Below are positions 3,158-60,991 of a stretch of DNA of 64,000 bases, one piece after another. Source of the DNA: a virus. Under the pieces are notes generated by a model. That model saw nothing but the letters and a program-made list of their open reading frames with translations. It did no database searches and had not been told where the DNA came from. The stretch spans positions 68,999 through 132,998 of IMG/VR virus record IMGVR_UViG_3300006033_000016; one strand, written 5' to 3'. The translations under genes were made by a program, and so were the position numbers. Within the stretch, counting starts at the first letter, position 1. Each line of letters starts with the position of its first letter.

Positions 3158-3472
3158 TCATCCTGCTTGCGCCAGTAGTAGAAATCGGTAGCGGTAAGAG
3201 TTAGACTCCTGATGTGTCTTTCTCTTGTGGCAATTAGAGCACAAGACGCGACACTTGTCAAGCTCTAACTGAAGATGGTTCCAACTACATGTGGTAGATC
3301 TTATCAATTTCGATATGTCTACTCTTTTATTGTGTAGGTGGTCAAACTCAAGGACAAGAGGGTCTCTCTCACCACACATTTCACACTCATGCTGGGAGAG
3401 ATAATTCCAAATTTTCTGCTGCTTACTATGAACGTGCTTTTTCTTGTCTTCTTTTGTTTTACCCACGTACAC
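3158..3472 (-). CDS. HNH endonuclease
   Basis: CEMCGERDPLVLEFDHL...KCRVLCSNCHKRKT; paralogous to 12009-12446. Confidence 0.85.
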   Translation of the reverse strand: MYVGKTKEDKKKHVHSKQQKIWNYLSQHECEMCGERDPLVLEFDHLHNKRVDISKLIRSTTCSWNHLQLELDKCRVLCSNCHKRKTHQESNSYRYRFLLLAQAG

Positions 3473-10747: not shown

Positions 10748-11506
10748 TCAGTCGTCCTCTTCGTCGTCCCAGTCATCGAAGTCATCGTCGTCATCTTCGT
10801 CTACTGGGGCCTTGGATTTGACGGGCGCCTTGGCAAGAGGCTTGGTAGGCGCTTTACGCGGCGGAGGAATGTCATCCTCTTCGTCGTCTTCGTCATCCTC
10901 ATCATCCTCAACGACCTTCTTAGGAGGGGCTTTGGACACCTTGACGGCTTTGCGGGGAGGTTCCTCCTCGTCCTCATCCTCGTCCTCATCCTCATCATCG
11001 GAAGGAGGCGGCGCAGTTTTCTTTGTGGGGGCTTTCGAAGCCTTTTTCGGCGGAGATTCCTCGTCCTCATCCTCGTCCTCATCCTCGTCCTGAGGAGAGG
11101 GAGCTGCTGACTTTTTAGTCAAAGGCTCAGTGGTTGTTGCCTTTGTAGCGACGGACGGAGTATCCTCTTCCTCGTCCGAAGGAACTTCTACAGGATTCTT
11201 TCGAGGGCGTCCTCTTCCCTTCTTAGAATCACTAGATTCCTTTTCTTCAGAGGAGGAGCTAGGAGTGCTGTTCTCTTGTGGAGAGGGTGAAGTTAGTGTA
11301 TCAGAAGAGGGCACAGCTATGCCCTTGTAGGAGTCATGTGACTCCACTTCGTCGAGGCTGTTAAGCCCCATCAACATCAACATTCCTCTGATTTCATCAA
11401 GGTTTAGAATAGGCCCATTTTTTAGACTGACGTAGTAATTTCTCTTTACTATGGCTTCAATCAACAGAGATTGAAGTTTGGCGTAGTCGCTCTTTGACAA
11501 GGACAT
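10748..11506 (-). CDS. Low-complexity acidic/Lys-Pro protein with AT-hook motif
   Basis: KKGRGRPRK followed by repeated DEDEDEDEE tracts alternating with PPKKA-like segments. Confidence 0.8.
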   Translation of the reverse strand: MSLSKSDYAKLQSLLIEAIVKRNYYVSLKNGPILNLDEIRGMLMLMGLNSLDEVESHDSYKGIAVPSSDTLTSPSPQENSTPSSSSEEKESSDSKKGRGRPRKNPVEVPSDEEEDTPSVATKATTTEPLTKKSAAPSPQDEDEDEDEDEESPPKKASKAPTKKTAPPPSDDEDEDEDEDEEEPPRKAVKVSKAPPKKVVEDDEDDEDDEEDDIPPPRKAPTKPLAKAPVKSKAPVDEDDDDDFDDWDDEEDD

Positions 11507-11548
11507 GGACAGGCTCCTGTTAGGTGTAGGTGAGTCTTTTACAAGAAA

Positions 11549-11863
11549 CTAGTTGGAAGAGGGTCTAAGAGACAGTAAGGAAAGAGTCAATTTTTCTGCG
11601 CCTTCTGTAGAAAAACAGACGGCCAGGTCGCACACCGATAGTAAGGACAAGTAAAGTACGCCAGACTTGCCAGAAGAGGGAAGTCCATCAAATTTTCTTC
11701 TAAGAGAAGAGAAAGAAGACGGATCACCATGTGACTCTAAAAGGGCGTCTAAACACATAGAGAAGGAAAGAAGGAAACCCTTTTCCACTCCGTTGGAATG
11801 GCGAGTTGTAAGATCGCTCACAGCGCTTACTATCTGTCTAAGTATATGGTAATCGTTTTCCAT
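11549..11863 (-). CDS. Hypothetical protein (start reassigned downstream of the tRNA sequences)
   Basis: The listed ORF start (11968) lies inside tRNA-Pro; ATG at 11863 (MENDY...) is more plausible. Confidence 0.6.
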   Translation of the reverse strand: MENDYHILRQIVSAVSDLTTRHSNGVEKGFLLSFSMCLDALLESHGDPSSFSSLRRKFDGLPSSGKSGVLYLSLLSVCDLAVCFSTEGAEKLTLSLLSLRPSSN

Positions 11864-11875
11864 GAATACCATATA

Positions 11876-11903
11876 TGGTCGGGGCAGCCAGATTCGAACT
11901 GAC
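11876..11903 (-). pseudogene. 3' piece of a split tRNA-Pro-like gene (T arm, acceptor strand, ACCA)
   Basis: GTCAG-TTCGAAT-CTGGC-TGCCCCG-A-CCA. Confidence 0.8.
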
Positions 11904-11924
11904 GTTGTGTCTGTCCTAATCTTA

Positions 11925-11999
11925 TGGTCGAGGTGACAGGAGTCGAACCTGCTTGATCTAGTTCCCAAAACTAGCGACTGACCGTTAGCCTACACCTCG
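11925..11999 (-). tRNA. tRNA-Pro(TGG)
   Basis: CGAGGTG/CACCTCG acceptor, anticodon arm CTAGT-TTTGGGA-ACTAG, T loop TTCGACT, ACCA. Confidence 0.93.
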
Positions 12000-12008
12000 A
12001 TGTGTAAT

Positions 12009-12446
12009 TTACAGAGCACTTATTCTAATGTATCCCCTTTCTCTGGCTGTTTTTCTTCTATGGCAGTTGGCACATAATATTTGACACTTTTTCACTTCTT
12101 CTTTTATCCTTCTAAGAGAACAGCCACTACCTACAAGGTTTGACACGTTTTCTATCTTAGTAGAAGGGTCTAGGTGGTCAAAGTCAAGTACTATGGGGTC
12201 GGATTCGCCACAAGAAGCACACGGATTGGTTTTTAGTATGTTGAGTATATACTCGGTATTTCGCATCCTCAACTTAGCAAAGTTAGACTGCTTTCTTGCC
12301 AACCTCAGTTCCTTGGTACCACTCCAATACCTACGGTCGTAGGATCTCTTGCACTCTCTACATTTAGAGAGATGCCTGTTTCTCTTTGTAAGATAAGGAA
12401 ATTCGTCTATTGGCTTTTCCACGTTACAAACTAAACAACGTTTCAC
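12009..12446 (-). CDS. HNH endonuclease
   Basis: N-terminal CLVC/CREC; CASCGESDPIVLDFDHL...KCQILCANCHRRKT. Confidence 0.88.
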   Translation of the reverse strand: MKRCLVCNVEKPIDEFPYLTKRNRHLSKCRECKRSYDRRYWSGTKELRLARKQSNFAKLRMRNTEYILNILKTNPCASCGESDPIVLDFDHLDPSTKIENVSNLVGSGCSLRRIKEEVKKCQILCANCHRRKTARERGYIRISAL

Positions 12447-12458
12447 AGAAATACCATA

Positions 12459-12479
12459 ACCAAGCTCAGCTATGCCCCG
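12459..12479 (-). pseudogene. 5' piece of a split tRNA-Pro-like gene
   Basis: CGGGGCA-TA-GCTGAGCTTGGT; first 7 nt are the exact complement of the orphan 3' acceptor strand at 11880-11886. Confidence 0.7.
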
Positions 12480-12487
12480 ATATGTTT

Positions 12488-12563
12488 TGGTGACTCCAAC
12501 GGGATTTGAACCCGTGTTAACGCCGTGAAAGGGCGCGGTCCTAGGCCTCTAGACGATGGAGCC
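12488..12563 (-). tRNA. tRNA-Glu(TTC)
   Basis: GGCTCCA/TGGAGTC acceptor, anticodon arm GCGCC-CTTTCAC-GGCGT, T loop TTCAAAT, CCA. Confidence 0.95.
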
Positions 12564-12568
12564 AAGAA

Positions 12569-12597
12569 ATACTACACGATACGAAAGTGTATGTCAA
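12569..12597 (-). promoter_or_regulatory. Sigma70-like promoter for the tRNA cluster
   Basis: TTGACA-17 nt-TAGTAT ending 5 nt before the tRNA-Glu 5' end. Confidence 0.6.
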
Positions 12598-12841
12598 GTG
12601 AAGGATCAAAAATAGAGTCCACGACTTCAGGATAGCCGTTGTCTCGAACAAAGATATAACGACAAAGGTGAGGAAACGATTCTTCAGGAAAGAAGTCTAT
12701 GAATATTAGCACACCCCTGTGATCGTTGTCAGGATCAAATGTGCCCCTAAAGACCTGTCTATCTCGCGTGTCTTTGACAGAAGACATGGACAGCATAGAA
12801 GAACTTACGTGTACCTTTCTACCGTCTAAGGTCTTCTTCAT
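12572..12841 (-). CDS. Hypothetical protein
   Basis: 89-aa ORF, ATGA overlap. Confidence 0.65.
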   Translation of the reverse strand: MKKTLDGRKVHVSSSMLSMSSVKDTRDRQVFRGTFDPDNDHRGVLIFIDFFPEESFPHLCRYIFVRDNGYPEVVDSIFDPSLDIHFRIV

Positions 12842-13377
12842 CGAGTAAGCTCTTCAAACCGGGTAAGAAAAAGTTCCTGGGCTTGCGCTGGAAGAAGTGG
12901 GTCATTAACATTTAGCCCTGGAGGAGGGCTGGCATTCAGGTAGGAAAACTTCAACTCTCCAACGGGGTACAGAAGATCTCTGGCTTCTGCCATAAGAACA
13001 GAGTTATCTGCCTCATGCACCTCTTCCGGAAGGTCCAACGGAAGGCCGAACTTACGAGCTATGGATTCCCATATGCGAGCCTCTAATTCCTCAAAGTCTG
13101 GCATAAATCTTTTGATGGGTCTAATAAGATCTCCGACATATGCCTCAGTTGCGTCGTGAAGAAGAGCTGCTAAGGCGTTTTCGGGAGAGACGTATTTAGA
13201 GCAATGCACGCTGTGCTCTGCCACGGAGTAAAATAATCTACAGTGACCGTTGAATCGGCAAAGCTTGGATAGGGCGGTAGCTATATCGTGTATGTCTATA
13301 GAGGCCTGTAGGTTGTCCCTAAATGGGTAAAACCTGGCTCCGCTATACAGTGTGAACCAGCTATCTTCTCTGTTCAT
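12838..13377 (-). CDS. HD-domain phosphohydrolase (YfbR/YfdR-like 5'-nucleotidase family)
   Basis: LS..CRFNGH..FYSVAEHS...ALLHDATEAY.GD..P.K...AD. Confidence 0.88.
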   Translation of the reverse strand: MNREDSWFTLYSGARFYPFRDNLQASIDIHDIATALSKLCRFNGHCRLFYSVAEHSVHCSKYVSPENALAALLHDATEAYVGDLIRPIKRFMPDFEELEARIWESIARKFGLPLDLPEEVHEADNSVLMAEARDLLYPVGELKFSYLNASPPPGLNVNDPLLPAQAQELFLTRFEELTR

Positions 13378-48821: not shown

Positions 48822-51676
48822 GCAGCAGCATCCTTTCTTTCCGGATCCTGAAACACAGCTTCTCTCGCGGCTATCTCGTGCCAAGGAGTTCCGGCAGCAA
48901 GCTCAGCGCTCCAATCGGAACAGGACTGAACGAGAGAGGGCAGCTTGGAGGCCACTCCGTCATACCCTAGCATATGCCCCCAGCGTACACCAAAATCGAA
49001 GTCTATTTCCATAGGAACAATCATCTTGATACCGAACTCTTCCCTCAAGAAATCAGGAATAGTATCCACCATCATAGTATTGAAGAGCCAGACCGCCTCT
49101 TCTGCCATAGCCAAGTCTATAGGAATCTCAAGAGTGATGGCGTCATGCACACAGTTTATCACATGATAGGGCCTATTGTTCTCTTCTATCCACCGCATGA
49201 TCCTCCACGCAGCCAAGGCAGTAGTGTCAGAAGATACAGCCTGAATGGGAGAGTTTCGAGCCCTTCTAGAACCTGCGCCTTCATCCAAGGCAAAAAGGTC
49301 AGCAAGGTGACGGCGCCTTTCCATAGGACTAGACACCACACCATGGAGTCTAGCGTAATCCTCAATTTCAGTTAGCCATCTACCTGCGCGGGGGAATTCC
49401 TTAATAAAGGTGTCCTGCAGCTCCAACGCCTTGTCTGGTGTGATGCCAAGCAGTGAAGCCAGGGTCTTGTAATGCTGGCCGTAAACGGCACCGAAGCACA
49501 AACTCTTTGCCTTTTTCCTCTCGTCTTTTGTTACCGAAGCAAGAGGCTTCCTGAACATGATGGCAGCAACCTTACGATGAATGTCGCATTCTTCTGCCAC
49601 TCTTTTTCCAAGAACTGGATCACCAGTTTTCTTGTATTCTTCCCTCAACGCCTTCATGTCGGAGAACAGAGAAGCGTACTGTGTATCTCCAGAAATCTGT
49701 GCCCACCAACGAACCTCAGCCTGACCATAGTCACACTCGATGAGCATGTATCCTGGTCTGGCACCGTACATGGAACGAATGAATGCCTTAGCAGTCCAAG
49801 GGTTTCCCTTAGGAAGCTGCTGAAGATTAGGGTTGGACGAACTTAGCCTCCCAGTAACAGTTCGTATGGCATGGAACCCAGCATGAATTCTTCCGTCAGC
49901 AGAATTATCTGGCTTAGAAAATAGAATATCACCTACACTATTAAGGTAAGAACTCCTTAGCTTGTAGAGCCCAGAGTACTCCTGATAGAGTGCTATAAGA
50001 GGATGGTCTTCGTACTCCTCAAAGAAAGCTTTGTTAATGCTAGGTTTGCCGTCTTTTCCGTGAGATAGGGGAGCTAACCCACAGGCCCCCACAAAGAAAT
50101 GAACCTTGTGTAACTTTTTATCAAGGTCCAATACCCATGGCTTTTTTCCAAAAAGTGGGCGCATGCCTTTGGTTCTAGGATCGTCTCCCAGGACTAAGTC
50201 GTTGGCCACCTTCGCTTGCTTAGAATCCGCAAGAAGTTTTGGAATCTCATCTAAACGAGTAATAATGGGGGACGAGTCAGACAAGAGAAAGTCTAACTGC
50301 TCCTTGTCCACATGAAATCCTGCCATTGTCATCTTGGACAGGAGAAAGGATATTCTCCCGTACCATCTAAGGGCGAATTTCAAGGCCGAAGAATATCCCT
50401 GTCTATCCAGCCACCTCTTGTAGTAATAGAACAAACGGAAAGTAATGTAAGCGTCAGTCCCACCGTACTCTGACAGTCGGTCAAGAGATAGGTCCCACAA
50501 ACTTCCCCCCTGAGCCCCTTGGCGTGCAGCCATAGCGTCAGAAAGTTCAGTATCGTACAAATAAAAGCCAAGAAGCTCTCGCGCCAAGTCCTTCAGTCGA
50601 AAAGCGTTGAATTCGCTAGACCCCTTGTTATCGTCTGAACCTACTTGGTTTTCGTCTTGAAGATAAGCCAAAAACTGTGTATCGATGACGGGCTTGGCAA
50701 AGCCAGAGAGCCTAAAAAATCGGATGGCTATTGATATGTCAAACTGAGAGTTGTGAGCTATCCAAAAAGGAAACTTAACAGACTTTGATGAAAATAGTTT
50801 CCTAAGCCTCTTTCTCACATAGTTGAGTTCGGCCCTATCTTTCCATGGAGAGTCCCAGTGTTGAAGGGGAAACACATAGGCTAAGTCTGCGTCTGCAGAC
50901 AACTGCAATGTGGCGACTTTATTACTGGCCACCAAGTTCAGATTCTGGGTTTCGAAGTCAAAAGCAACAGGTTTTGTACATTCGGAAAGGAAAAACGATA
51001 TAGCTTCGTCTACCTTCTCCTTGGTGTCACATACAATTACCTTGCCCTTCCTTGACCACTTTGTCTCCTCTCCGGTCAAGAGGGAATGAACTGATTTTAT
51101 TTGCCTGTGAAATTTCCTTCGACGAGGTCCGTTCTGAGATTTTATAAAAGAGGACGGGTGAACGGTTACTAAGTGGGTTTTTCCGTTACTTTTATAGATC
51201 TGTCCACTGAGAGAGCCAGCGCCCTTTCCCTGCCACGAAGGGTTTGGGTTTAGGGCCTGCAAGGGCTGCGTACCAGCGTATATGACTATCTTAGGCTGCA
51301 GGGCCTCTATGTCCTTCTTGACATAGTTAGAACAGGCTGTGACCTCTTCCAAGGATGGGTCACGACTAGATCCATCATCCTCAGTTGGGCGACATCTGAC
51401 GATATTGGATAAAGCAAACGAATCTGTAATCCCAGCCTTTGCTAAGGCGCTTTTTATCTCTGCCCCTGCGTCGCCAGCAAATGGAAGACCTACATTGTCC
51501 TCTACACGTGATACGGACTCTCCTATAACCAGGACGTCAACTTTAGGAGTTTCCTCGTCCTCGCCCACCTCACTATAGTACACGTCAGTGGGTACGTAAG
51601 TAGTCTTATGGCCACTGTTTCGGTACAGAGGACACCCAGAACAGTACACGGGGTCCTGTGTCATCAGCTTGCGCAT
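48818..51676 (-). CDS. polA: Family A DNA polymerase with N-terminal family-4 uracil-DNA-glycosylase-like domain and 3'-5' exonuclease
   Basis: CSGCPL..IGE..PFAG..N.VRCRP..HPS; exonuclease DFET/HN..FD/Y...D; TGRLSS.NPNLQQ, DYGQAE, K...FG..YG, VHD. Confidence 0.93.
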   Translation of the reverse strand: MRKLMTQDPVYCSGCPLYRNSGHKTTYVPTDVYYSEVGEDEETPKVDVLVIGESVSRVEDNVGLPFAGDAGAEIKSALAKAGITDSFALSNIVRCRPTEDDGSSRDPSLEEVTACSNYVKKDIEALQPKIVIYAGTQPLQALNPNPSWQGKGAGSLSGQIYKSNGKTHLVTVHPSSFIKSQNGPRRRKFHRQIKSVHSLLTGEETKWSRKGKVIVCDTKEKVDEAISFFLSECTKPVAFDFETQNLNLVASNKVATLQLSADADLAYVFPLQHWDSPWKDRAELNYVRKRLRKLFSSKSVKFPFWIAHNSQFDISIAIRFFRLSGFAKPVIDTQFLAYLQDENQVGSDDNKGSSEFNAFRLKDLARELLGFYLYDTELSDAMAARQGAQGGSLWDLSLDRLSEYGGTDAYITFRLFYYYKRWLDRQGYSSALKFALRWYGRISFLLSKMTMAGFHVDKEQLDFLLSDSSPIITRLDEIPKLLADSKQAKVANDLVLGDDPRTKGMRPLFGKKPWVLDLDKKLHKVHFFVGACGLAPLSHGKDGKPSINKAFFEEYEDHPLIALYQEYSGLYKLRSSYLNSVGDILFSKPDNSADGRIHAGFHAIRTVTGRLSSSNPNLQQLPKGNPWTAKAFIRSMYGARPGYMLIECDYGQAEVRWWAQISGDTQYASLFSDMKALREEYKKTGDPVLGKRVAEECDIHRKVAAIMFRKPLASVTKDERKKAKSLCFGAVYGQHYKTLASLLGITPDKALELQDTFIKEFPRAGRWLTEIEDYARLHGVVSSPMERRRHLADLFALDEGAGSRRARNSPIQAVSSDTTALAAWRIMRWIEENNRPYHVINCVHDAITLEIPIDLAMAEEAVWLFNTMMVDTIPDFLREEFGIKMIVPMEIDFDFGVRWGHMLGYDGVASKLPSLVQSCSDWSAELAAGTPWHEIAAREAVFQDPERKDAAA

Positions 51677-56732: not shown

Positions 56733-57326
56733 TCAGAACTTATACCCATCTGCCTTCATAGCTGACTGTAGACTCTTAGTTAACCTGGTAATCTTGTGCC
56801 TTCCAGTGTAGCCGTCCTTTTTTAGTTGGTCCAGCAGCTCTGACACCAAATATTCGGACTCCTTGTTGAAGCCTCCATTACCCGCCCTTGCCATCTTAGA
56901 TAGGGTCTGCTTTACTTTTGCTAGTCTGCTTCGAAGATCCGGTCTCATTGCTACTTTCCTAACTATGTCCTGAAGCTCAGGTATACGTCTAAGGCCAGGG
57001 TATGCGGGGTTTATATCAGGAGACTGCGAAGGCCCGTCATGATGTCTACGAGACGAACTTGGGTAGAAGCCGAAGTCATCAGTGTTTTGTGAGGGTGTTC
57101 TTGGAGTTCTTCGTACGTAAGGAGAACCAGAGGGAGCAGACCAAGGAGAAAACGAAATATTAGGGTAGTGAGACTCTAAGTGTTGCTCGTCTGGGTGAAG
57201 AACTATCCTAACAATATAAGAATCATTAGATTTTATGTGAACTATCTTGGGATAGGAGAGAGCCTCTCTGGCGGAAAGAGAAGACGATAGTGTTTCCCAC
57301 TGCAGTTCGGCTTCCTCCCGAGTCAT
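56733..57326 (-). CDS. Hypothetical protein
   Basis: 197-aa ORF. Confidence 0.7.
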   Translation of the reverse strand: MTREEAELQWETLSSSLSAREALSYPKIVHIKSNDSYIVRIVLHPDEQHLESHYPNISFSPWSAPSGSPYVRRTPRTPSQNTDDFGFYPSSSRRHHDGPSQSPDINPAYPGLRRIPELQDIVRKVAMRPDLRSRLAKVKQTLSKMARAGNGGFNKESEYLVSELLDQLKKDGYTGRHKITRLTKSLQSAMKADGYKF

Positions 57327-59486: not shown

Positions 59487-60991
59487 ACTATTCCCTCGTG
59501 ATATCCTAATATGTATCCGTCTACAGACGTAACAGATCCCGCCGGACTGGTATCTACTCGAATAGTAAACTGCTGCGTTCCGTCTGATGGGAGAGGAACA
59601 TCCACTTCTATGTGGCCCTTGCCGGTGTCAAAGTTGCCGGAAGCAAACACGAAACCCGCTTGAGTCAAAAAAGAAACGGTGTATTCTGTAGCAGCGTTGT
59701 TTCTAAACCTCCAACGAGTACGAACCAAGCGAGTGTGCGGCGGAACTACCAAATCTCCGCTTATTCCAGGATTTACGGTAACAGATTGGTTAGACCCGTC
59801 AGCAAGAGACGCTATGGAAACAAAAGAAGAAGATGAGTTAGCCCCAGGAGGATTTACTCCGTCTAATAGAGGTGCCACGGTAGTGTATCCTCCTATCTGA
59901 AGAAAATCTCGTACTCTAAAGTTGCCCCCATCCGTATACATCCTAAAGGCCCCAATGTAGTGTCCAACAGACGTAGAATCTGCAGGCCAGGGCGCAGGAA
60001 GAGGCAGGTTGGTACGTGTCCCATAAGGCAAATTAGCGCCAAAAGGAGGAGGATCAGGTGTATATGTAAGAATAACGTTTCCACAACTTCTATTAGGACG
60101 TACAGCGTATAGGTAGAACCATTGGTCTACCACACGAGTAACTCCACTAGGAACTCTGGTGGAAATGTCGATAGAAGCGGGCGATGAAAGAACAGAAGAA
60201 AAAAAGGAACTACCCAACAAAGAAGTATAGCCTGCTATACGAACCTCATTGGGACTCACTACCAATATAGTATTGCTGCCAGAGGCCAAGTAAACATGAG
60301 GAGAAGATCGGAAGCCATCAGTTGCAGCGGAAAGCAAGCCAGCAGATTGAAACTGGCTTACCCACCTTCTTACATCATAAATAGCCAAGGCAGAGGTAGT
60401 CAAAGATCCGCCAGAAATTCCCACAACATAAAGAGGAATCCAGGAAGGATCCGGCCGCAAGGCAGGAGCGACGGCAGAGGAAGAAGAAGCTGCTACTCCT
60501 GGTCTAACTCTTAGCGTCAAAGTGTTGTTGAGTATCTTTGGGACTACAGTAGGAACCAGCCTACGAGTTGGGCCCAGACTAGTTAAAACGTTACGACTCT
60601 CTGTTTCTGTTATCTGAATCGCTGAACACTCTATGATATCGTAACGAGTTTGTCCAACCACGGGAGCGGGAGAAAACCCGAGAGAGACAGGGTTCTCCAA
60701 AGAGGACATCTGATATATGTTGTCATTTTCTATAGAGGAACCACCAAAACCGAAAACAGCTACTCCCCTGCCTATTCCAACGGAAAGATTGGACGAACTT
60801 CGAGTGAGGCTTAGTCCGGATACAACCGCCCCTCCCTCTACTGTTCCTGCGGTAGAAGGTCCGTCCCCAAGGGAGGCCAGAAACCACCCCTCAAGGACTC
60901 TGTTCAAATCCCTGGCACGAAGATCTTGAGCACTGGCCACGTCCTCGTTGGTGACTACTTCATTATCATTGAGTATAATCTTCTTTGACAT
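59483..60991 (-). CDS. Putative tail/baseplate structural protein
   Basis: VVSGL.L...V..G.A...R.D.I...WIPLY.V...I.D.R pattern. Confidence 0.6.
   Translation of the reverse strand: MSKKIILNDNEVVTNEDVASAQDLRARDLNRVLEGWFLASLGDGPSTAGTVEGGAVVSGLSLTRSSSNLSVGIGRGVAVFGFGGSSIENDNIYQMSSLENPVSLGFSPAPVVGQTRYDIIECSAIQITETESRNVLTSLGPTRRLVPTVVPKILNNTLTLRVRPGVAASSSSAVAPALRPDPSWIPLYVVGISGGSLTTSALAIYDVRRWVSQFQSAGLLSAATDGFRSSPHVYLASGSNTILVVSPNEVRIAGYTSLLGSSFFSSVLSSPASIDISTRVPSGVTRVVDQWFYLYAVRPNRSCGNVILTYTPDPPPFGANLPYGTRTNLPLPAPWPADSTSVGHYIGAFRMYTDGGNFRVRDFLQIGGYTTVAPLLDGVNPPGANSSSSFVSIASLADGSNQSVTVNPGISGDLVVPPHTRLVRTRWRFRNNAATEYTVSFLTQAGFVFASGNFDTGKGHIEVDVPLPSDGTQQFTIRVDTSPAGSVTSVDGYILGYHEGIV

Follow-up and report, generated by a model that had tools for sequence, protein, structure and literature searches.

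Anatomy of the tRNA-Pro locus

Examination of the 64,000-nucleotide (nt) window analyzed here, positions 68999-132998 of the 132,998-bp IMG/VR virus record IMGVR_UViG_3300006033_000016, revealed a tRNA-Pro gene whose two ends are separated by an HNH endonuclease gene and a second, intact tRNA-Pro gene. Positions are those of the window unless they carry the label G000, which marks record-wide coordinates. CheckV estimates the completeness of the contig at ~34%, and the contig is therefore a jumbo-phage fragment. ARAGORN called 20 tRNA genes on it, every one on the minus strand. Read along that strand, tRNA-Glu(UUC) is followed after 8 nt by the 5' piece of the outer tRNA-Pro, then by the HNH gene, by the inner tRNA-Pro 9 nt beyond the HNH stop codon, by the outer 3' piece, and by a downstream gene at what was formerly the 3' limit of the tRNA block (Table 1). 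All parts described in a sequence-only reading of the window were recovered on the minus strand, at the positions given there, by direct reading, ARAGORN, Rfam and PHROG, which confirms that the nested layout of a broken tRNA-Pro around an HNH gene and an intact tRNA-Pro is real.

Table 1. Features of the tRNA-Pro locus, in the order of the minus strand.
Feature	Position	Strand	Remarks
Promoter-like site, TTGACA-17-TAGTAT, 10/12	12569..12597	-	Consensus match only; just upstream of tRNA-Glu
tRNA-Glu(UUC), intact	12488..12563	-	ARAGORN; Rfam tRNA 55.8 bits
Outer 5' piece, 23 nt	12457..12479	-	CGGGGCA-TA-GCTGAGCTTGGT at 12479-12459; to 12457 by comparison with intact relatives
Direct repeat, left copy, 20 nt	12439..12458	-	TATGGTATTTCTGTGAAACG; contains the HNH GTG start codon
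HNH endonuclease gene, 145 amino acids (aa), GTG start	12009..12446	-	phrog_2255, E 2.9e-37
Inner tRNA-Pro(UGG), intact, encoded CCA	11925..11999	-	ARAGORN; Rfam 52.4 bits
Spacer between inner tRNA and 3' piece, 21 nt	11904..11924	-	
Outer 3' piece, GTCAG-TTCGAAT-CTGGC-TGCCCCG-ACCA, 28 nt	11876..11903	-	Orphan T arm; 7-mer partner at 12479
Direct repeat, right copy, 20 nt	11854..11873	-	TATGGTATTCATGGAAAACG; contains the start of the downstream gene
Downstream gene	11549..11866	-	No Pfam or PHROG family; tblastn 39% identity to matches in L002 and L003

The outer 5' piece comprises the acceptor 5' strand CGGGGCA, U8 and A9, the D-stem 5' strand and the D-loop. The outer 3' piece consists of a T arm (GTCAG-TTCGAAT-CTGGC), the acceptor 3' strand TGCCCCG, A73 and CCA. 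The two acceptor strands of this shell form 7/7 Watson-Crick pairs and carry C1-G72 and A73, as had been claimed for CGGGGCA/TGCCCCG. The shell interior measures 555 nt, in agreement with the earlier description of an anticodon arm replaced by a cassette of about that length, but the loss is wider than the anticodon arm: roughly positions 24-48 are missing from the outer tRNA, including the D-stem 3' strand, the anticodon arm and the variable loop. The HNH open reading frame (ORF) and the inner tRNA take up 513 of the interior bases and leave 42. The outer gene lacks a complete cloverleaf, and at this locus ARAGORN and Rfam call the inner tRNA-Pro and tRNA-Glu alone. It is possible that the block from tRNA-Glu onward is read as one transcript from the promoter-like site. 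No terminator-like site was found within 11400-13000.

The outer pieces and the inner tRNA-Pro differ in type

Surveying viral contigs with the gapped pattern CGGGGCATAGC..TGCCCCGA, which combines both acceptor strands with U8-A9-G10-C11, returned 39 loci. ARAGORN identified 35 of these as tRNA-Pro (34 UGG and 1 CGG) and the remaining 4 as non-tRNA. An exact search of the viral contigs with the outer 5' piece gave 0 matches. The closest intact match to the outer pieces is the tRNA-Pro(UGG) of locus L255, which is identical to the 5' piece at 22/23 bases and to the 3' piece at 21/25. Because this alignment matches at 22/23 bases, the 5' piece is considered to run to 12457, into the D-loop. These comparisons identify the outer pieces as the two ends of a canonical, bacterial-type tRNA-Pro(UGG), with the same anticodon as the inner gene.

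The inner tRNA-Pro(UGG) is of a divergent type, with the D arm GGCTAACGGTCAGTC. It has merely 9/23 and 15/25 bases in common with the outer 5' and 3' pieces, respectively, which agrees with the earlier statement that the outer acceptor strands differ in sequence from the inner tRNA.

The enclosed gene encodes a predicted HNH endonuclease

The HNH gene is a stand-alone ORF with its own start and stop, situated between RNA genes. Nuclease names are borne by 13/16 of its PHROG matches, the best of which is 'HNH endonuclease' (phrog_2255, E 2.9e-37). The 145-aa product has an N-terminal CxxC...CxxC zinc ribbon followed by the layout CxxCGE...DFDH...N...CANCH. Alignment with eight homologues revealed that C76, C79, G80, E81, D90, H91, C125, A126, N127, C128 and H129 are invariant in all 9/9 sequences. 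The Pfam HNH model (PF01844) matches 6/9 of these family members, with a best E of 8.2e-05. Profile and motif show that the predicted product belongs to the HNH (His-Me finger) endonucleases.

The AlphaFold model of the protein has a predicted local distance difference test score (pLDDT) of 92.5. A Foldseek search of the PDB with this model returned no match at E ≤ 0.001, and a profile search of PDB sequences returned only Hpy99I, at E 0.17. The top match in VIA-align was the Gme HNH nicking endonuclease from Geobacter metallireducens, 4h9d (Z 5.2, root-mean-square deviation 3.1 over 62 residues), which aligns with the C-terminal 80 residues. Many other HNH domains match the model at Z 2.3-3.6, which is under the level that is safe alone. 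The protein shares the CxxC...H...N...CxxCH layout with 4h9d and differs from it by the additional N-terminal zinc ribbon and a long helix. The modeled fold is consistent with a beta-beta-alpha-metal fold, although not decisive.

Two HNH paralogues are encoded elsewhere in the window on the minus strand, at 3158-3472 (phrog_2255, E 4e-21) and 1574-2296 (phrog_4234, E 8e-23), upstream of tRNA-Lys(UUU) and tRNA-Arg(ACG). Shell pieces were not seen around the paralogue at 3158-3472.

A duplicated flank at the junctions, and the locus in near-identical strains

The two 20-nt direct-repeat copies are identical at 16/20 positions. The left copy directly follows the 5' piece and the right copy begins 2 nt after the ACCA of the 3' piece, such that the left junction is a D-loop joined to a copy of the post-tRNA flank. 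The 9-mer at the core of the repeat, TATGGTATT, occurs only at these two sites on the minus strand of the 133-kb contig. As read from the junctions, this points to a duplication of the tRNA 3' part and its flank around the insert, followed by deletion, or to microhomology-guided repair.

Both junctions are bridged by contigs from four further runs, X2-X5, which come from four studies and diverge from the locus by ~1-2%. A single X4 contig spans 11891-12858. The X2 contigs cover 11509-12030 and 12166-12602, the X3 contigs cover 11515-12126 and 12426-12670, and the X5 contig covers 11846-12383. No joint that skips the cassette across 11876-12479 was present in the X2-X5 contigs, a type of data in which rare variants are dropped. 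The HNH ORF is intact throughout: it has accumulated seven substitutions (3 synonymous and 4 non-synonymous) and no stop. The inner tRNA-Pro shows 0 substitutions in these contigs, and the spacer shows one, at position 11924 in run X3. The RNA-labelled runs X15-X20 contain only 0.05-0.11 of the sampled words.

Syntenic relatives lack the HNH gene

Megablast of positions 11700-12800 against the phage collection gave no match, and a distant search of the same collection returned 87 records that match the tRNA-Glu part alone, none of them reaching 80% coverage. Three jumbo-phage contigs (L002, L003 and L004) share the neighboring dmp-like gene at 52-56% identity and are collinear with the window by tblastn. 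The order in L002 is dmp, an extra ORF, an 89-aa gene, tRNA-Glu, three intact tRNA-Pro genes (CGG, GGG and UGG), and the downstream gene. In L003 dmp is followed directly by the downstream gene with no tRNA between them, and L004 carries a lone tRNA-Pro(UGG) at the syntenic place that is identical to the inner tRNA at 59/75 bases. The tblastn matches to the downstream gene lie at 8383-8649 in L002, directly after the last tRNA-Pro, and at 6572-6835 in L003, directly after dmp. The HNH gene is thus missing at the locus in 3/3 relatives and present in the contigs of 4/4 near-identical strains. Gene order in this clade shows that the interval between tRNA-Glu and the downstream gene is a variable spot and that the inner-type tRNA is native to the clade.

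The tRNA-Pro(CGG) that lies next to tRNA-Glu in L002 matches the outer pieces at 18/23 and 18/25 bases. Pair 6:67 is C-G in the outer pieces and T-A in this gene. Since both sides of the pair have changed, the two outer pieces have evolved as one helix.

The 89-aa gene upstream was found in L002 as the sole viral contig, and the JGI metagenomes contain no relatives of it. A large protein collection returned the protein itself and P0002, which is 80% identical and is encoded on a 4,275-bp Logan contig.

Split tRNAs enclose HNH genes at other loci

Homologues of the HNH gene were examined at 143 loci, 63 from viral contigs and the best 80 of 564 from metagenome contigs. Shells were sought with a strict scan for an orphan T arm whose 7/7 partner lies 130-1500 nt upstream and is followed by U8-R9-G10...A14, with neither piece inside a called tRNA. 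The scan of the contig and the 143 loci gave 3 matches, namely the tRNA-Pro shell described here, L095 and L030, and the scan of the 80 metagenome loci gave 1 match, L172. The match in L030 is probably false, as this locus has no tRNAs and the loop is odd. In a control with the unmasked run, there were 2 matches in 1.61 Mb of reversed sequence versus 11 in the real sequence.

The clearest parallel to the split tRNA-Pro shell is L172. Here the halves of a split tRNA-Lys(UUU) surround an intact tRNA-Lys(UUU), whose acceptor stem differs from theirs, and then an HNH gene. The outer strands form 7/7 Watson-Crick pairs. Its outer 5' piece consists of the first ~41 nt, including the anticodon loop, and the T arm and acceptor 3' strand come after the HNH gene. 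The upstream flank is present twice, before each tRNA-Lys. L095 contains a tRNA-Val(UAC)-like 5' piece, a degenerate Val-like tRNA, an HNH gene, and an orphan T arm and acceptor strand that overlap the stop codon. Its acceptor strands pair 7/7, two G-U pairs included. With these two loci, the HNH and tRNA cassettes inside tRNA halves that the sequence-only reading had suggested searching for do exist elsewhere.

In all three shells (tRNA-Pro here, L172 and L095) the 3' piece starts at the T arm. The ends of the 5' pieces differ among them and lie in a D-loop, an anticodon loop and an anticodon stem. These ends would fit breakage close to the T arm's 5' edge, after which a variable amount of sequence was lost from the opposite side.

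The HNH ORF of L095 (2917-3417) has no start codon near its conserved N-terminus. Its reading frame begins with an ATG 84 nt upstream and runs through the degenerate tRNA-Val-like sequence, which thereby forms an N-terminal extension of the HNH ORF; tRNA-like processing would therefore destroy the HNH message.

A relaxed version of the scan produced 13 matches, most of them clearly chance. Two of these, L092/L093 and L096, were left uncounted, as the uncalled full-length tRNA-like gene after the HNH gene makes them ambiguous.

A second split tRNA lies on the contig itself, ~20 kb away, at G000 ~59,960-60,614 (4960-5615 of L147, minus strand). Its tRNA-Ala halves carry G3:U70 and enclose an unrelated HNH gene (phrog_1271, E 9.5e-17) without a replacement tRNA, and the T stem is partly decayed. 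The contig has no called tRNA-Ala at all.

Three other orphan T arms on the minus strand were rejected as tRNA debris since they fall inside Y RNA-like matches. Partners of orphan T arms were left unused in this search, where ~0.7 chance partners per orphan are expected in the 2,500 nt searched. The Y RNA-like matches (Rfam YrlA, RF02553) lie at 204-314 of the window (G000 69202-69312), G000 57109-57235 and G000 50883-51009, and score 28.9, 51.2 and 44.3 bits, respectively, all under the gathering score of 69. Between tRNA-Leu(AAG) and tRNA-Cys, at G000 63175-62976, we also observed, outside the window, an element of 200 nt that has D and T arms and a perfect acceptor stem of 7 bp. About 125 nt occupy the place of its anticodon arm, and the element as a whole contains no ORF of at least 60 aa and matches nothing in Rfam at E ≤ 1. 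A tRNA-like frame of a similar kind is seen in a 264-nt element at G000 66390-66127, where the partner strand may be due to chance.

The HNH family is found beside tRNA genes

A tRNA gene on the same strand is present at 70/143 of the homologue loci. At 58/143 a tRNA lies within 100 nt of the HNH gene on either side: it starts at most 100 nt downstream at 47/143 and ends at most 100 nt upstream at 23/143. The downstream tRNA is the sole tRNA of the locus at 23/143. Of the 24 loci with tRNAs on both sides of the HNH gene, 4 have the same anticodon on both sides, namely L087 (Lys), L148 (Pro), L163 (Pro) and L194 (His), which may be an indirect sign of preferential inheritance together with flanking markers. 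In L148 and L163, which are the closest among the metagenome homologues examined (45% identity), the HNH gene lies between two tRNA-Pro(UGG) genes, and in L163 both tRNA-Pro copies have the same 3' flank. In L083 (44%), a Pro-like tRNA whose anticodon loop has 8 nt precedes the HNH gene and an intact tRNA-Pro(CGG) follows it, and in L082 (45%) an orphan Pro(UGG) anticodon arm comes after the HNH gene. Many homologue ORFs end inside the next tRNA or at its first base, and in L082 and L087 tRNA fragments abut the HNH stop codon.

The Pro-like tRNA of L083 (2848-2918) is directly upstream of the HNH homologue, has C1-G72 and A73, and is assigned the anticodon 'aaga' by ARAGORN. Several homologues, with L085, L087, L092/L093, L104, L108 and L163 among them, have HNH stops at or inside the next tRNA gene or fragment. 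The HNH stop codon TAG of L087 appears to be the conserved U8-A9-G10 triplet of the tRNA fragment, and the TGA of L163 lies at tRNA positions 8-10. A tentative reading places the TAA stops of L085 and L092/L093 at the U8-A9-G10 positions as well. On the metagenome contig L188, a tRNA with the anticodon CUA ('Pyl' in ARAGORN) begins 2 nt after the HNH homologue. As read from its anticodon, it would be an amber-suppressor-type tRNA linked to the HNH family.

Nine high-GC metagenome contigs (L164, L176, L192, L213, L170, L197, L210, L222 and L223) carry an HNH gene just upstream of a lone tRNA. These lone tRNAs are tRNA-Arg(UCU) or tRNA-Gly(UCC) and are followed by conserved sequence that does not look like phage. 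Sixteen solitary pairs of an HNH gene and a tRNA on metagenome contigs were inspected by eye, and shell pieces were seen in none. Several of the 16 look bacterial-chromosomal. The HNH family may also occupy bacterial chromosomal tRNA genes.

Origin of the outer pieces

The outer ends most likely represent a scar rather than a split gene that still works. In the explanation that we consider probable, tRNA-Glu was formerly followed by a canonical tRNA-Pro(UGG) gene, and a cassette of HNH and tRNA-Pro left the scar in it. A free-standing HNH gene linked to its own divergent tRNA-Pro(UGG) would have come to sit mid-gene, with the loss of positions ~24-48, and the inner tRNA would have taken over the decoding of CCN codons from the dead outer gene. 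In genomes without the HNH gene, the nuclease would cut or nick canonical tRNA genes close to the 5' border of the T arm, and the break would be repaired from a genome bearing the HNH gene and its own tRNA. Repair would proceed partly via microhomology, or via duplication and then deletion, leaving the 23-nt and 28-nt ends and the 20-nt duplicated flank. The divergent inner tRNA gene would represent the allele spared by the nuclease, which presumably cuts the uninterrupted allele while the inner gene resists cleavage. The block would probably be transcribed from the promoter before tRNA-Glu, and tRNA processing would free the HNH message. The sequence-only reading had likewise proposed an invading homing-endonuclease cassette with a divergent replacement. 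In favor of that proposal are the position of the HNH family at tRNAs, the parallel shells, the HNH-less relatives and the canonical identity of the outer gene; the 20-nt flank repeat speaks against a single clean insertion.

Several observations weigh against this explanation. The 16/20 flank repeat, as it reads, excludes a simple cut-and-paste left border, and it does not fix the order of events. Relatives do include an HNH-less locus with tRNA-Glu and then an intact tRNA-Pro (L002). The uninterrupted exact outer tRNA, which the earlier reading had proposed to look for, was not found after tRNA-Glu in any relative, and the syntenic L002 gene, at 18/23 and 18/25, has the anticodon CGG. The inner-type tRNA is resident in L004 without an HNH gene, and therefore the tRNA need not have come with the HNH gene. 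No decay of the outer pieces is visible, with 0 substitutions across the four other strains; this number is uninformative on constraint because only ~1 change is expected in 51 nt at ~1.5-2% divergence. For the protein, PF01844 gives E 0.091 and 13.4 bits, which is under the cut-off of 21.4, and the structural matches are modest, with Z 5.2 at best. Finally, nuclease activity, target site and inner-gene resistance are predictions, both for the 145-aa HNH protein and for its subfamily.

Three other explanations were considered. The two pieces could be remnants of separate ancestral genes in a tandem tRNA-Pro array such as L002 has, with no insertion into one gene: the 3' part of the first gene and the 5' part of the last would have been lost, and the HNH gene and a middle tRNA-Pro would have stayed in between. 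At the syntenic place L002 does have three consecutive tRNA-Pro genes, L148 and L163 have a tRNA-Pro(UGG) on each side of the HNH gene, and the 20-nt flank copy after the 5' piece implies that part of the tRNA 3' neighborhood existed twice. We nevertheless regard this origin as improbable. The pieces pair 7/7, while the three Pro genes of L002 all differ in their acceptor stem, and both pieces match one canonical type (L255, 22/23 and 21/25). If there were two copies, they would be duplicates of one gene, which is compatible with the scar of a cassette in a canonical tRNA-Pro. An intron, of group I or II or of a new kind, or an integrase-type insertion that duplicates the tRNA 3' end, is a further alternative: HNH genes are often carried in group I introns of phage genes, and integrative elements leave repeats of tRNA 3' ends. 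These possibilities are remote, and the earlier statement that the interior has no room for a group I or II intron core holds: the ORF and the tRNA fill 513/555 interior bases, and no Rfam intron family matches at E ≤ 10. The break furthermore removes positions ~24-48 and is thus not placed as an insertion in the anticodon loop. As for an integrase, no such gene is present in or next to the cassette, and the outer 3' piece does not repeat the inner tRNA's 3' end (15/25).

It is also conceivable that the shell is functional, with the acceptor strands and the T arm forming a tRNA-like minihelix for RNase P, RNase Z or CCA-related enzymes that frames or times the HNH message or yields a tRNA-like RNA. 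A canonical T arm and an encoded ACCA are still present in the 3' piece, the pieces are without substitution in the four other strains, and the contig has several tRNA-like RNAs without an anticodon arm (the sub-cut-off Y RNA-like matches and the 200-nt element). A minimum-free-energy prediction for the 607-nt stretch includes the closed 7-bp terminal helix and has a z of -2.19 versus 20 shuffles, of which 1 was at least as good. Against these points, predicting a 7-bp helix over 600 nt is weak evidence, the shell has no match among Rfam families, and zero changes in 51 nt is the chance expectation at this divergence. The parallel shells differ in their break points and in their order (tRNA then HNH in L172 and L095, HNH then tRNA here), and the split tRNA-Ala on the contig has a decayed T stem. 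Moreover, once the inner tRNA-Pro is processed at its two ends, the pieces would no longer lie on one transcript. We therefore find a working shell very unlikely. The earlier suggestion of a tRNA-framed mRNA processed like a tRNA fares no better: the in silico terminal helix is the sole point in its favor, and maturation of the inner tRNA would part the two pieces.

Relation to known nucleases of tRNA clusters

Group I introns with homing endonucleases are found in tRNA genes, for example in cyanobacterial tRNA-Leu and tRNA-fMet. As in the locus described here, a nuclease gene lies inside a tRNA gene. The difference is that the present locus has no ribozyme core, that its break is outside the anticodon loop with part of the tRNA deleted, and that a second gene, instead of splicing, restores function. 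The nucleases of the T5 tRNA cluster are reportedly HNH nickases. They resemble the present case in that nuclease ORFs of the F-Tfl kind lie in a phage tRNA cluster (via PMC2330249), and in that tRNA processing of the primary transcript has been proposed to limit their expression (PMC2330249). The sentence that PMC2330249 devotes to them reports no split-tRNA shell.

SegB of T4/T6 is a free-standing GIY-YIG homing endonuclease in a tRNA cluster, and its 27-bp site contains a T-arm motif (PMC2330249). It carries tRNA genes into relatives that lack SegB and drives inheritance of the tRNA region (PMC2330249). In T6, SegB-driven amplification joins a unit of tRNA and segB via microhomology, and SegB homologues are enriched near tRNAs (PMC13096335). 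In the parts of these two papers that concern SegB, the system shares with the HNH gene its place as a free-standing nuclease gene among tRNA genes, ORF ends that overlap tRNA processing sites, and duplications of tRNA and nuclease through microhomology. SegB belongs to the GIY-YIG enzymes, in contrast to the predicted HNH nuclease of the present locus. According to the same accounts, SegB sits between intact tRNA genes, and they describe no nesting in a broken isoacceptor gene with a replacement. Compared with SegB and T5-type enzymes, the nesting in a broken isoacceptor gene together with a carried replacement is what is new here. No description of an HNH and tRNA cassette nested in a split isoacceptor gene was found in full-text searches of the literature, with supplementary tables being outside this coverage.

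Implications for phage tRNA genes

The effect of free-standing homing endonucleases on tRNA genes themselves has been little described. In the three shells, a selfish gene would occupy an essential-type target without an intron by sitting inside the destroyed isoacceptor gene and supplying a working substitute (here, L172 and L095). If the nuclease is specific for the canonical tRNA, this would account for the divergent tRNAs of large phages and for the tRNA debris in their arrays. It would likewise account for the rapid turnover of phage tRNA repertoires, which is relevant to escape from tRNA-targeting defences. For annotation, the lesson is that orphan tRNA halves around an HNH gene should be read as scars and not as split genes.

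A wider proposal, which we offer tentatively and with more doubt than conviction, is that HNH and tRNA cassettes form a distinct and widespread 'cut-and-replace' mobile class. Each nuclease would be specific for the body of one canonical isoacceptor gene, which here would be the bacterial-type tRNA-Pro(UGG). It would break the copies of that gene in competing phages immediately 5' of the T arm, and the co-copied divergent isoacceptor would act both as immunity allele and as substitute. Were this true, such cassettes would drive the turnover of phage tRNA sets, and host tRNA genes might be cut too, the target type being the usual bacterial one.

A variable acidic protein near the locus

On the minus strand, positions 10748-11506 of the window encode a protein of 252 aa. 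Its long tail is very acidic, being rich in Asp and Glu and also in Pro and Lys. Contigs from other runs carry in-frame length variants of this protein, in which 9 and 6 nt are inserted and 57-154 nt are skipped.

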